Of a stretch of 64,000 bases of DNA, positions 10,187 to 23,349 are shown one piece after another. The stretch's first letter is position 1. The number at the start of each line of letters is the position of its first letter. The translations under genes were made by a program, and so were the position numbers. The stretch covers positions 480,001 through 544,000 of the forward strand of contig OZ243972.1 of assembly GCA_965214705.1 (NCBI GenBank). The letters are read 5' to 3'. This DNA comes from Alphaproteobacteria bacterium (GTDB taxonomy: Bacteria > Pseudomonadota > Alphaproteobacteria > UBA828). The notes under the pieces are model-generated. The model was not told the origin of the DNA and searched no databases. It saw nothing but the letters and a program-made list of their open reading frames with translations.

Positions 10187-12244
10187 ATGTGCGGCATAGC
10201 CGGTTTTCTTGGAAGAGGACCTCTCACGTCGGAGGTAGCGTCATCGATCGTCCATGAGATGGCGGACACAGTCGTGCATCGCGGTCCCGACGATGCCGGG
10301 ATCTGGCTGGACCTTGAGGCGGGAGTCGCTCTCGCGCATCGCCGTCTGGCCGTCGTCGATCTATCGCCGGCCGGTCACCAGCCGATGCTGTCCGGTTCCG
10401 GGCGAAGGGTGATCGTCTTCAATGGCGAGATCTACAACCACCGGGACCTCAGACGACGGCTCGACACCCATCGTCAGAGCATCTCCTGGAAGGGGTATTC
10501 CGATACGGAAACGCTGCTGGCAGGCATCGAGTGTTGGGGATTGGAGGAGGCGTTGCGGGCATCCACCGGCATGTTCGCCTTTGCCCTCTGGGATCGCGGG
10601 GACAGGGCCCTCTATCTGGCCCGCGACCGGGTCGGCGAAAAACCGCTCTACTACGGTTGGCAGAACGGTGTGTTCCTGTTCGGGTCAGGGTTGAGGGCGC
10701 TCGCGGCGCATCCTGCGTTCGCGGGGGACATCGACAGAGGCGCGCTCGCCCTGCTCTTGCGCCACGGTTATGTTCCATCCCCTTGGTCCATTTACGAGGG
10801 CGTTCGAAAGCTGCCGCCGGGCACGTACGTCAGGATGGCCGTCGGCGCTTCAGGCCAGCGTGCGGGCGAACTGACGGAACCGCGGCCGTACTGGTCTTTG
10901 CGGGACGTGATGACCGCGGGCCGGGCCGAACCGTTCGAGGGCACTCCCGAAGAAGCGGTTGACGTCCTGAACGACCTGTTGCTGCGGGCGGTCCGCCGGC
11001 AGATGGCAGCGGACGTTCCGCTTGGCGCGTTCCTGTCCGGCGGGATCGATTCGTCGGCCGTCGTCGCATTGATGCAGGCGCAATCCACGCGGCCGGTGCG
11101 GACGTTCACCATCGGATTCGATGAAGTCGAATACGACGAAGCGCCGTACGCCAAGGCTGTGGCAAGCCATCTGGGAACCGAACATACGGAGTTGTACGTC
11201 TCGGCGCGCCAGGCGCTGGACGTCATTCCGCGCTTGCCGAATCTTTTGGACGAGCCCTTTGCCGATGCCTCGCAAATGCCCACCTTTCTCGTCGCCGGGA
11301 TGGCGCGCCGGCAAGTGACCGTGGCCCTGTCCGGAGACGGCGGTGACGAGCTGTTCGGCGGCTATGATGATCGCTATTCTTTGACGTCACGAATATGGAC
11401 GTCACGGTGCAGGCGCTGGATGTCCAACGTGCCGTTGCCGCTACGCCGCATCGGCGCGGGCGCGGTCCTGGCGTTCGTCGCCCCGGAATCGCACACCACG
11501 TTGCCGGGCCGCTTTCTTCGCCGGCTGCCCGCATCTAACGGGCGGCGCTGGACACCTGGCCGGGTCCGCAAGCTGGCGGCGCTGGTCACCTGCCGGACAC
11601 GGGAAGAGTTTTATTGGCGCAGCCTCTCGCACTGGCTGAATCCGGCCGCGATCGTTCGCGGAGCGTCCTTACCCGAAACCGTTGTGAGCGAAGCTATAAG
11701 CTGCGTGGATGCGTTGGAATTCGCAGAGTGGATGATGGCAGCCGACACCCTGAGTTATCTCCCCGACGACATTCTGGTCAAGGTCGACAGAGCAGCGATG
11801 GCCGTCAGTCTCGAGACGCGCGCACCACTCCTGGATCACCAGGTCATGGAATTCGTCTGGCGTTTGCCGTTGTCGTTCAGGATCCGCAGCAACGAGAGCA
11901 AATGGATCCTGCGGCAGGTGCTCTTCAGATACGTGCCGATGCGGCTCGTCGATCGGCCGAAAGCGGGATTCGGTGTGCCACTCGCCTCGTGGCTGCGTGG
12001 TCCTCTCCGGGACTGGGCGGAAGCCTTGCTCGACGAACGGCGGCTTCGGGAGGAAGGGTTTTTCGATCCCGCCCCGGTTCGCCAAACGTGGGGCGCATTC
12101 CTGAGAGTGCACGATAGTGCGGAGCAACGCCTCTGGAACATCCTGATGTTCCAGGCATGGCTGGAACGTTCACCCGCTGCCGAGCGCGGCGCGGAATGCC
12201 CGCCAGGCGGAGACCGCGTCGCCGGGTCGCGGCAGCCAGATTGA
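10187..12244 (+). CDS. asnB: Asparagine synthase (glutamine-hydrolysing), polysaccharide-amidotransferase type
   Basis: MCGIAG Ntn N-terminus, HRGPD, FNGEIYN, LSGGIDSS, SGDGGDELFGGY; lies inside a glycan locus. Confidence 0.93.
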   Translation: MCGIAGFLGRGPLTSEVASSIVHEMADTVVHRGPDDAGIWLDLEAGVALAHRRLAVVDLSPAGHQPMLSGSGRRVIVFNGEIYNHRDLRRRLDTHRQSISWKGYSDTETLLAGIECWGLEEALRASTGMFAFALWDRGDRALYLARDRVGEKPLYYGWQNGVFLFGSGLRALAAHPAFAGDIDRGALALLLRHGYVPSPWSIYEGVRKLPPGTYVRMAVGASGQRAGELTEPRPYWSLRDVMTAGRAEPFEGTPEEAVDVLNDLLLRAVRRQMAADVPLGAFLSGGIDSSAVVALMQAQSTRPVRTFTIGFDEVEYDEAPYAKAVASHLGTEHTELYVSARQALDVIPRLPNLLDEPFADASQMPTFLVAGMARRQVTVALSGDGGDELFGGYDDRYSLTSRIWTSRCRRWMSNVPLPLRRIGAGAVLAFVAPESHTTLPGRFLRRLPASNGRRWTPGRVRKLAALVTCRTREEFYWRSLSHWLNPAAIVRGASLPETVVSEAISCVDALEFAEWMMAADTLSYLPDDILVKVDRAAMAVSLETRAPLLDHQVMEFVWRLPLSFRIRSNESKWILRQVLFRYVPMRLVDRPKAGFGVPLASWLRGPLRDWAEALLDERRLREEGFFDPAPVRQTWGAFLRVHDSAEQRLWNILMFQAWLERSPAAERGAECPPGGDRVAGSRQPD

Positions 12245-23200: not shown

Positions 23201-23349
23201 CCTTCGACTTGCGGCATCCCCCAAAGATGCAGCTCCCGCAGGCTGGTCAGAGCGATGACAGCCAACGTCCAGAACGCGACCGCGATCAGCGCGGTCTGGA
23301 GCGCCACGCTTCGGCGCAGCAGCAAGACTGGATGTCTGAACAGGAACAT
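17254..23349 (-). CDS. O-antigen ligase/polymerase (Wzy_C/WaaL-like) membrane protein with a large inserted plant-type LRR array
   Basis: N-terminal TMs with RLTGAFVNPN and GSASRT; C-terminal RPLLW...PVFGHG...PHNLFIMLLGEAG followed by TMs; between them 9 capped modules of 24-aa LxxLxLxxNxLxGxIPPELG repeats. Confidence 0.88.
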   Translation of the reverse strand: MFLFRHPVLLLRRSVALQTALIAVAFWTLAVIALTSLRELHLWGMPQVEGVIARATMACMVILVGLVGIRCLFAWRKSGSRVSVLSTVGGMPGVLLLGAVASYLAIGFAVMDEADWLPGTAASLRFAVLAFGVLVAAAVGGRAVLERVGADRLLQGVLVVLISSCVIILASPILRDLGILPPYRIPFRLTGAFVNPNGAGLIGCMTVALAAAFLTNGGPRTLGWLGLAAGVAATVGSASRTALVILGALMVLFLLINVSGKPRAFVLALAATGFVGIAGFVGVAAFSDGLSQWSMLRNVSGDVLERKLFCDPSPTANPGANCAILLAARDILAGDIALNWSRTVPVNRWQGVTVEGPEGRVTGLDLAVLGLNGSIPPDLGRLDRLVSLSLGRNRLTGRIPPELGNLASLEYLHLGLNALTGAIPPELAKLKNLEELWLQGNRLTGPVPAAIGELRLSVLRLSGNDFDSIPPKINAVADHDLGRLVLCLPPPRTSPALFEDCTTLLAAKDTLAGDAPLDWHAAVPIGLWRGVTVGGPEGRVIALDLPGKGLNGRIPPRLGRLDGLVLLNLADNRLTGSIPPELGQLVDLRILALDRNALTGTVPAELARLPRLRALWLRENRLTVPVPSALFDVPDHDLGRLVLCLPPPRTSPALFEDCTTLLAAKDTLAGDAPLDWHAAVPIGLWRGVTVGGPEGRVIALDLPGKGLNGRIPPRLGRLDGLVLLNLADNRLTGSIPPELGQLVDLRILALDRNALTGTVPAELARLPRLRALWLRENRLTVPVPSALFDVPDHDLGRLVLCLPPPRTSPALFEDCTTLLAAKGTLAGGAPLKWRAEIPIGLWQGVTVGGPEGRVIALELPRTGLRGRVPAAFGHLAGLRSLVLDGNALTGAIPPELGKLTDLERLGLANNALTGPIPPELAKLSSLRKLWLSGNRLTGFLPPELRAVAGRDAPCPAAPAHNPGLRADCALLLAARDILAGDAPLGWSEDIPIEFWQGVTVGGSPERVTRLDLSRSGLNGRIPPALGRLDRLVSLHLNRNRLTGPVPPELGELSDLERLVLSFNALSGPIPPELGKLSHLRELWLKHNRLTGSVPPELEELEKLTLIRLSGNDLERPYPRRLYRIANHDLDLHDLRRRRSLDDAEAAQAADRRMNRDRPDAVRRLFCRPSSSVTSDLQADCGLLLANKDVLAGDAALDWSEDIPIEFWQGVTVGGSPKRVTALALPRAGLNGRLFAELGELGGLVALDLSHNRLAGPVPPELEGLGNLFFLRLTGNDLNRPFPPALHEIADHDLDGPVFCRPKKIDPGLLADCTLLLTVRDSLAGDAPLNWRRDVPVDDWQGVAVDRSHGRVTALDLTQMGLNGRIPAELGQLAGLASLRLGRNRLAGDIPPELGNLAGLRMLALGGNLLAGSVPPELGKLSRLTDLWLSGNRLSGPAPPSVAALPALRLDYDDAAGELRAQGRGRGRVLDRNLFCQSFPEALPRLYDDCATLLAARDVLAGDVQLNWSDAVPIGYWRGVTVGMPNIAGEAAEGPRVIALDLSHVGLNGRIPAELSALDALAVLRLGNNRLAGPIPPELGTLTGLRTLVLENNALTGEIPPELSALQALVSLRLGGNELTGGIPQGLTTLTGLRVLALENNILTGNVHPQLGNLSRLEELRLENNRLHGALPEALDRWAHLAVLRLGGNAFADCLPATARAAQVRHNDLDSADLLCDPSPWTKPGLFEDGARLMRMRDTLAGDAALNWSFARPVASWQGVTIGRGGRIIALDLRDMNLTGRIPPELGELAHLHLLRLDGNRLTGPIPPELGNLTRLTMLSLDDNRLMGPIPREIANLSNLGQLWLADNRLTGSVPPELAGIRLLSLAVAGNDFQGCMPWELYGLRSHDIDDGFICAALAKDRPLLWRLGFEKAMEAPVFGHGLRALKYLEGAPVTWSGDLPDPHNLFIMLLGEAGIVPLLLFLSAIVLLLRTQWVAPKSLARDATVAWVIVIVPYCMTFAHLLGEEAFMFLAGLSVAIGAVRGAGDRRPAKV
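20883..21918. repeat. 471-bp tandem repeat (~2.2 units) encoding identical 157-aa LRR modules
   Basis: CCTTCGCCGCCAGCAGC recurs at 20883, 21354 and 21825; the translations are identical. Confidence 0.9.

Follow-up and report, generated by a model that had tools for sequence, protein, structure and literature searches.

A predicted WaaL-fold enzyme with a very large LRR insert, encoded in a cassette with GT4 glycosyltransferases and a putative Wzx-type flippase

Genes at the locus

The DNA analysed here (the window) is a stretch of 64,000 nucleotides from an alphaproteobacterial genome. On its reverse strand five genes follow each other closely: a lead gene (17254..23349) encoding a protein of 2031 amino acids, termed LRR-ligase; three genes matching GT4 Pfam families (16000..17250, 14744..16003 and 13506..14747), the first of which is in frame with the ligase, after its TGA and one codon; and a gene assigned to a Wzx-type flippase (12170..13492). 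The intergenic gaps are 3, -4, -4 and 13 nt. A gene for an AsnB-type glutamine amidotransferase with Asn_synthase and GATase Pfam domains lies on the forward strand (10187..12244) and overlaps wzx by 75 bp. Recomputation confirmed this layout, with its gaps and overlap, as given in a preliminary description of the window, and the absence of a priming transferase, Wzz, Wza and Wzc also held: none was found among the 65 window ORFs scanned, out of 160 listed at >=120 amino acids, many of which are shadow frames. By itself the putative operon is an ordinary Wzx-dependent layout. Two tandem tyrosine integrase genes (23451..25727, reverse strand) are located directly upstream of the LRR-ligase; integrase protein matches were absent at all 33 loci compared, and no link with the cassette was demonstrated. 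A sigma-70 scan gave 0 sites, with 1.3 expected.

The three GT4 proteins, which contain the EX7E motif besides the Pfam domains, are paralogues sharing 72-76% identity (76% and 72% between the first and, respectively, the second and the third). Identity reaches 83-86% in the donor-binding half and is 51-64% in the first 125 columns. Their best NCBIfam match was PglJ, at 93-107 bits far below the cut-off of 500.

The ORF designated wzx gave no Pfam, NCBIfam or PDB sequence match of its own; a simple scan counted 11 hydrophobic segments in it. Its putative identity comes from homologues: 45 of 89 database homologues match PF01943 or PF13440, 6 of the 13 homologues at other loci match Polysacc_synt families, and homologues sharing 80-82% identity with the window ORF are among those that match. 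The single-sequence fold was unusable (pLDDT 47), and comparison of the alignment profile with typical Wzx gave a probability of 0.7%. A separate PDB sequence search, with protein P0164, yielded nothing useful.

The AsnB product scored 451 bits with TIGR01536 (cut-off 267) and 532 bits, below the cut-off of 817, with TIGR03108. Where DNA beyond the GT4-wzx block was visible, asnB followed wzx in 3 of 6 loci, and in none of the three of these that showed an LRR ligase. The overlap of its C-terminal tail with wzx stems from a deletion of ~130 bp relative to loci L013 and L018. Because asnB is an optional neighbour and the overlap a local deletion, the possible amidation of the glycan suggested in the preliminary description is unsupported and was rejected as a core part of the system.

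The lead protein and its insert

The lead protein is, as judged from a homologue's model, a WaaL-fold GT-C enzyme. It matches Wzy_C at 36.6 bits (gathering cut-off 31.7), with model positions 82-149 aligned to residues 1899-1962, and matches LRR families as well. The N-terminal membrane part (residues 1-305; 22435..23349, reverse strand) holds R188 and R240, the latter equivalent to R191 of WaaL, and the C-terminal part (residues 1894-2031; 17254..17670, reverse strand) holds R1901, H1943 and the last membrane helices. By family profile alignment R1901 and H1943 correspond to R265 and H313 of WaaL, whose catalytic roles, together with that of R191, have been described (PMC10920833). WaaL (7TPG/7TPJ) was the sole PDB sequence matched by the family profile (E 3e-10), with R191, R265 and H313 aligned. 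The evidence for the fold is an AlphaFold model of the two-module homologue P0085 (pLDDT 84), which is 78-80% identical to the window protein across the two membrane parts. The model matched WaaL 7TPJ (Z 21.5, rmsd 6.3, 340 residues aligned, 17% identity) ahead of FtsW (Z 15.3); the 50 fold matches listed included no solved Wzy polymerase, which excludes nothing.

Residue conservation was determined in the 138 proteins, out of 170 examined, that had both halves. R188 was invariant, and R1901 and H1943 were each present in 133. Five proteins had Asp or Asn (Asp in three) in place of the histidine, which was retained in all 81 insert-free relatives. R240 was conserved in 124 and substituted in 14. 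Ligases have His at this WaaL position whereas related polymerases mostly have Asp or Glu (PMC10920833). The acidic residue expected for Wzy polymerases of clan GT-C1 is thus not the rule here, although His does not decide against a polymerase because Wzy-beta also uses His, according to the available text of PMC4815439.

The window protein was unmatched by the NCBIfam models RfaL, TfpM and TIGR03097 (putative O-glycosylation ligase, exosortase-associated). Among the 81 insert-free relatives weak matches were obtained with TIGR03097 (27), the O-OTase TfpM (10), RfaL (2, at 21-22 bits against a cut-off of 277) and the polymerase model TIGR04370 (2); the best scores were far below the cut-offs (TfpM 28 bits, cut-off 600; TIGR03097 49.9, cut-off 188). 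The type III effector labels XopAC, XopAE and XopL were discarded as LRR-only matches far below cut-off. A plasmid search with the N-terminal part gave no match.

Between the two membrane parts, inside the large catalytic periplasmic loop, lies an insert of ~1,590 residues (residues ~306-1893; 17671..22434, reverse strand). It consists of nine modules, each a cap followed by two to six plant-type 24-residue LRRs; all nine caps have the WxGV motif, eight have a Cys pair, and 30 matches to LxxLxLxxNxL were counted. The best PDB matches of the insert are plant receptor ectodomains. In our search no published description was found of a very large LRR array inserted beside the active site of a membrane sugar-transfer enzyme.

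The insert could be an adhesin-like passenger on a permissive loop, with no role in catalysis or acceptor choice, an interpretation compatible with the other readings and in our view quite improbable. It fits the variability of the loop, which in relatives is empty or holds an Ig-like domain, fn3 or 1-10 LRR modules (sister clades have an Ig or fn3 insert or are insert-free), and the recent duplication of modules 2 and 3, made near-identical by a 471-nt tandem repeat (20770..21918; 2.4 copies, 97% match, 565 nt exact). In addition, the domains that the available part of PMC10947273 lists as common in sponge symbionts include LRR, fibronectin III and cadherin. Against it, the modules are conserved like the enzyme (0.73-0.86 in 33 nine-module homologues), the multi-module proteins fall into a single clade with strong support (28 rows of the tree), and the loop, in bacteria with two membranes, points into the periplasm and not towards a host organism. 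Hypervariable LRR faces were looked for and are absent overall: exposed LRR positions (0.66-0.79, compared with 0.78-0.84 for the membrane domain) show no clear excess of variability, which counts against acceptor choice by the LRRs. The most variable repeats are two in module 1, with 24-50% at most exposed positions.

Occurrence of the cassette in other genomes

An LRR-ligase gene followed by a GT4 gene of this family was found at 15 of 18 multi-module LRR loci from 14 genomes, and the proposed linkage survived the synteny comparison; since the gene order recurs in other genomes, it is not due to chance. At the three others (L001, L011 and L012) no GT4 of the cassette family was seen: the sequence of L001 ends right after the third ligase, and L011 and L012 keep a GT4 remnant only. 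The cassette DNA blocks are 81-86% identical across phyla, from which the cassette is taken to be shared horizontally among unrelated bacteria. Transfer is argued from identity and not from tree conflict, because in the Wzx tree a grouping of the six Pseudomonadota-plus-window rows was not rejected (p-AU 0.106).

Loci have one to four GT4 genes and up to three ligases. The two kinds of gene alternate in tandem arrays whose copy number varies, a feature missed by the earlier operon model. Three fixed orthologous GT steps apply only in part: some positions group across genomes, while L002, L016 and L017 contain within-genome duplicates, with 11 of 39 inner branches of the GT4 tree open.

Ligase and GT4 are naturally fused in P0027 (one of 116 proteins checked), and 16 ligase/GT4 junctions, that of the window included, are in frame. 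Together with WaaL as the closest solved structure, these observations would suit a WadA-like lipid A-core ligase, for which the adjoining GT4 prepares the core acceptor sugar to be capped with the flipped oligosaccharide. In keeping with this, the hosts of the multi-module clade belong to diderm phyla. LPS cores differ widely among the four host phyla, though, RfaL was matched by only two of the 81 relatives, a single locus of the 33 (L016) had an LPS-core-type gene beside it, for a Kdo transferase, and 1,590 residues of LRR are needless for a lipid acceptor. Brucella WadA likewise joins a GT and a ligase, as stated in the available text of PMC9938171; even so, we consider this explanation improbable.

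No Wzz, Wza or Wzc was present among the 234 proteins scanned from the 33 loci, and the only WecA/MraY-type protein among them stood beside a distant insert-free relative (L028). No recurrent acceptor gene was detected within the 10 kb flanks, many of which were shortened; general OTases need no acceptor-gene neighbour.

These loci might alternatively encode an inverting Wzy-type polymerase of a GT4-built repeat unit, with the priming enzyme and any chain-length regulator coming from elsewhere or the LRR string acting as a periplasmic ruler or scaffold. A wzy gene typically occupies just such a position among GT genes and wzx, and sister-clade members adjoin wzx and GT genes in Chloroflexota, which lack lipid A. 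Module number is bimodal (two modules in 38 of 138, 8-10 in 70 of 138), both sizes coexisting in single loci (L003, L006 and L016); if the LRRs were a ruler, these paralogues would give different chain lengths. The ruler form lacks direct support, however, and the linkers between modules are of low confidence in the P0085 model. Further points against a polymerase are the absence of co-polymerase and export genes among the 234 proteins, the match of TIGR04370 to merely 2 of 81 relatives, and the histidine in all 81 of them. The preliminary description had taken the lack of Wzz as favouring ligase or O-OTase activity over polymerisation. That argument is weak: the priming transferase is equally missing, which indicates that cassette parts come in trans, and His-type polymerases exist, since Wzy-beta, which contains Wzy_C, depends on His300 (available text of PMC4815439). 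We hold the polymerase to be possible, if rather doubtful.

Proposed function and comparison with known systems

The reading we favour, with a probability of roughly 45%, is that the enzyme transfers a short lipid-linked glycan once, with inversion, to an acceptor in the envelope that the LRRs select. A phosphoglycosyltransferase of the host, encoded elsewhere, would prime undecaprenyl-PP; the near-identical GT4s, assigned by family, would attach similar sugars in alpha linkage, one apiece and probably HexNAc, to give a short oligosaccharide; and Wzx, assigned to its family through homologues, would flip it. R240 and R1901 would then bind the diphosphate while H1943 activates the acceptor hydroxyl, so that one glycan is transferred with inversion, as the fold and the residues suggest. 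The acceptor, most likely a protein, may be selected or retained by the LRR modules, which from the position of the insert would rise out of the catalytic loop into the periplasm.

This reading is favoured by the WaaL fold and residues, by the NCBIfam matches of the insert-free relatives, by the lack of Wzz, Wza and Wzc among the proteins scanned from the loci, by the variable numbers of GT4s and ligases, by the likeness of the GT4s in the donor-binding half with PglJ as best match, and by the Ig-like or fn3 inserts of relatives. It is weakened by the lack of a recurrent acceptor gene in the flanks covered, by NCBIfam scores that are all far below cut-off, by the R240 substitutions, by the His of the polymerase Wzy-beta (PMC4815439, as far as available) along with the five Asp/Asn proteins, and by the three multi-module loci without GT4 of the cassette family. 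Of the build-flip-transfer system outlined in the preliminary description, the linked cassette stands (synteny in 15 of 18, the P0027 fusion, intact WaaL residues), whereas amidation and the Wzz argument do not.

A broader and somewhat unlikely possibility is an oligosaccharyltransferase family with plug-in recognition, in which LRR, Ig or fn3 loop inserts set which envelope proteins are glycosylated. If so, the cassette would move whole between phyla of a common habitat, and these 'eukaryotic-like' LRRs would be specificity arms of a periplasmic enzyme and not host-facing effectors. For one class of eukaryotic-like LRR proteins the cassette supplies a definite enzymatic context. Ligases, protein transferases and polymerases all occur in the Wzy_C superfamily, with acceptor choice poorly understood, and a single active-site-adjacent loop that is empty or carries Ig, fn3 or 1-10 LRR modules offers a natural series for tests of acceptor and chain length. 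Should the insert program specificity, it would be useful in glycoengineering.

WaaL (CAZy GT121; Cupriavidus, 7TPG/7TPJ) has the same membrane fold, Wzy_C, two Arg and His; the LRR-ligase differs by the ~1,590 residues of LRR in the catalytic loop, by its own GT4s and Wzx, and by often having several paralogues per locus. Brucella WadA (GT25 plus ligase) couples the ligase with a cytoplasmic GT, like the P0027 fusion, whereas the cassette GT belongs to GT4, has a C-terminal position and is mostly encoded by a gene of its own, and Wzx and the LRR insert are present. The Wzx/Wzy pathway with Wzy-beta of P. aeruginosa likewise combines GTs and Wzx with a Wzy_C protein in which Arg and His are essential, but no Wzz, Wza or Wzc was seen near the loci examined here, and their GTs are near-identical and variable in number. 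TfpM and TIGR03097 are the nearest curated models for the insert-free relatives, though far below cut-offs. The O-OTases TfpM, TfpO, PglL and PglS share Wzy_C and the catalytic His with the LRR-ligase, and the extra periplasmic domain of PglS has been suggested to recognize the acceptor (PMC9829042). In contrast to these enzymes, the extra domain of the LRR-ligase is in the loop, not C-terminal, and neither a pilin gene nor any other acceptor gene recurred in the flanks covered.

The plant LRR receptors SERK, BIR, SOBIR1 and ERL1 have the capped 24-residue module (Z ~21, rmsd 2.1-2.2, ~160 residues); here, nine short, separately capped modules stand in series in a bacterial enzyme, with both ends at the membrane. 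The eukaryotic TMTC1-4 proteins combine a GT-C domain, which uses a monosaccharide lipid-P donor, with a C-terminal TPR array thought to select protein acceptors. Like the LRR-ligase they are membrane glycosyltransferases with a repeat array, but of a different GT-C class, and the likeness is an analogy only. Compared with all these systems, the pathway type is known and the enzyme architecture is a variation on a known theme.

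Architecture of the LRR ligase and its family

The 2031-aa lead protein (minus strand, 17254-23349) is a membrane enzyme in two parts (residues 1-305 and 1894-2031), which are separated by nine modules, each consisting of a WxGV cap and 2-6 LRRs. The best solved relatives of these modules were plant receptor ectodomains. When a family profile of 127 members was compared with the PDB, the sole matching sequence was the Cupriavidus O-antigen ligase WaaL (E 3e-10), and WaaL residues R191, R265 and H313 aligned with R240, R1901 and H1943 of the window protein. According to PMC10920833, the two arginines of WaaL bind diphosphate and the histidine activates the acceptor, within a long periplasmic loop. 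The homologue P0085, which has two modules, gave a predicted model (pLDDT 84) that matched WaaL with a Z of 21.5 and SEDS proteins with a Z of 13-15. The alignment of these residues and the model match together place the LRRs within the periplasmic loop that forms the catalytic site; one arginine lies on either side of the insert, and both of its ends go back to the membrane.

Two family searches with the N-terminal part of the lead protein yielded at least 80 and at least 89 matches, drawn from the 8,000 best-ranked candidates scored in each. Both halves were present in 138 of the 170 proteins examined; R188 was kept in all 138, R1901 and H1943 in 133 each and R240 in 124. In one subgroup (P0071, P0076, P0078, P0080 and P0147) the catalytic His was replaced by Asp or Asn, and one relative of 1494 aa (P0193) combined two Wzy_C domains with a SnoaL-like domain at its C terminus. 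Proteins had between 0 and 10 LRR modules, most often 2 (38 proteins) or 8-10 (70 proteins), and relatives either had an Ig-like or fn3 match or lacked an insert. In a tree of 83 rows built from profile columns, on which approximate insert labels were taken from simple motifs, the window protein belonged to a 28-row, all-LRR clade (SH-aLRT 100%). Among 33 nine-module homologues the modules were about as conserved as the enzyme part; that the LRR array is a passenger is considered very unlikely.

The gene cluster and its glycosyltransferases

The preliminary description had proposed, from sequence alone, an operon of ligase, three GT4s and Wzx. The five minus-strand ORFs (12170-23349) and the convergent asnB were indeed found, with computed gaps of 3, -4, -4 and 13 nt and an asnB-wzx overlap of 75 bp. 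Pfam searches detected LRR and Wzy_C in the lead protein, GT4 in three ORFs and an AsnB-type enzyme. The wzx ORF had no match of its own in a direct family search and was assigned to Wzx because 45 of its 89 homologues, some at 80-82% identity, have Polysacc_synt domains. A TrcR family protein is also encoded in the window; together with the nearest relatives of GT4 paralogues 2 and 3 it suggests an alphaproteobacterial host.

Amidation of the glycan had also been raised as a possibility; it may occur but is unsupported: asnB follows the GT4-Wzx block in three loci of relatives (L013, L018 and L030) and does not follow it in three others (L003, L007 and L017). The overlap in the window is a local deletion, since L013 and L018 have about 130 extra bases between wzx and asnB. 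In L007 (13998-17953) genes for an SGNH/GDSL protein, a NodU-type carbamoyltransferase and an SxtJ-family protein, convergent to wzx, occupy the place of asnB.

The three GT4s are mutually 72-76% identical. Identity reaches 83-86% within the donor-binding half, against 51-64% over the first 125 columns, a pattern that would fit enzymes sharing one donor sugar and acting on successive acceptors. Their best NCBIfam model was PglJ, well below cut-off, and the nearest relatives of paralogues 2 and 3 came from an Alphaproteobacteria genome. At 16 flagged junctions, including the window (17248-17256), L002-L010, L014, L017 and one with a GT remnant, the ligase is in frame with the first GT4 behind a stop, always TGA, and one codon. 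One of 116 proteins checked (P0027) is a natural ligase-GT4 fusion. The in-frame junction could reflect readthrough or a split ancestral fusion; readthrough is only a lead, because common descent can explain the frame.

Distribution and possibly mobile surroundings

One GTDB scan gave 33 loci in 27 genomes of seven phyla. Multi-module LRR ligases were encoded in 18 loci (two of which, L017 and L019, overlap) from 14 genomes of Pseudomonadota, Acidobacteriota, Nitrospirota and Gemmatimonadota. The expected linkage to GT4 held, as 15 of the 18 contained the window's GT4 family (one truncated). Linkage to Wzx held in part: Wzx was seen in seven, the available flank ends inside the array in seven of the other 11, and none was found in the 4.5-6.5 kb downstream in L006, L011, L012 and L020. 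Arrays differ: their ligases number up to three and their GT4s one to four, and the two are often interleaved.

Blocks of DNA, 1.3-6.7 kb long, from Acidobacteriota, Binatota, Nitrospirota and Gammaproteobacteria shared 81-86% identity with the window. Such values far exceed those expected from vertical descent between phyla, and the flanking genes differ between loci; both points suggest that the cassette spread horizontally, even though a Pseudomonadota clade was not rejected in an AU test on Wzx (p 0.106). The set of host taxa resembles that of sponge microbiomes, a putative habitat.

Two tandem tyrosine integrases (23451-25727) lie 102 bp upstream of the ligase, and the start of an integrase recurs as a third, partial copy at 34249-34320. 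Taken with the SNF2 helicase at 27337-30714, the transposase-like ORF at 32266-34149 and the low GC content of 35000-38000, they look like a mobile island, within which ARAGORN predicted an unusually long tRNA-Ile (92 nt, 31597-31688). The low-GC ORFs (35663-38153) encode 231 aa with a weak NB-ARC match and 561 aa, the latter without a match in Pfam and PADLOC searches. A separate low-GC GT4 (7366-9981; 3' part 48% GC, 5' piece without its own Pfam match) appears to be interrupted by an IS, which has its transposase at 8411-9550, its inverted ends close to 8190 and 9690, and a target duplication of 4 bp.

At other loci, LRR ligases without intact GT4 (L011:3166-9669 and L012:3643-9788) are divergent from a cluster of NTP_transf_5/transglutaminase-like, ABC transporter, PqqD and 2OG-Fe oxygenase genes; a sulfotransferase and a second AsnB-type enzyme are also encoded in L011. 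A Cas9-like ORF with HNH and RuvC matches (L013:14904-18152) lies near an Ig-insert ligase. Adjoining sister-clade ligases are tandem arrays of large membrane proteins, some of which have long soluble C-terminal regions and weak PMT/PMT_2 matches (L018:12653-18116, L022:1535-6935 and 12928-20690, L025:13345-17118, L029:11817-20676), putative GT-C-rich surface-glycosylation islands. Upstream of an LRR ligase, L015:1389-8272 encodes a UbiA-type prenyltransferase, an FAD oxidase and a short-chain reductase beside PMT-like genes, a set presumably resembling the decaprenyl-phospho-arabinose pathway.

Transfer or polymerization

Among the 65 window ORFs scanned there was, as described previously, neither a priming transferase nor any of Wzz, Wza and Wzc. 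From the 515 locus genes, predicted with a home-made caller, 234 proteins (cluster representatives, selected members and singletons of at least 100 aa) were scanned; they included no Wzz, Wza, Wzc or WbaP-type protein and one WecA/MraY-type protein, encoded beside a distant relative. The lack of a chain-length regulator had been taken to favour a ligase or O-OTase over a polymerase, but this absence says little, because the priming enzyme is absent too.

The catalytic-site His favours a ligase or oligosaccharyltransferase (PMC10920833). Weak model matches of 81 insert-free relatives (TIGR03097 27, TfpM 10, RfaL 2, polymerase TIGR04370 2) lean the same way. However, Wzy-beta is a Wzy_C polymerase that depends on its His (PMC4815439), and in TfpM the same His serves protein transfer (PMC9829042). 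A single transfer to an LRR-selected acceptor is our preferred reading, at a probability of roughly 45 per cent. That the enzyme is a polymerase is less probable. A core ligase like WadA (PMC9938171) is unlikely.

No fusion of LRRs to an O-antigen ligase was found among the matches listed, by title and abstract start, in searches of the open full-text literature, and domain tables of subscription papers or supplements could list it; LRR and fibronectin III domains are named among symbiont proteins of uncertain role in PMC10947273. The type of pathway is known; as a variant, an enzyme of WaaL fold whose catalytic loop carries an exchangeable repeat array appears new.
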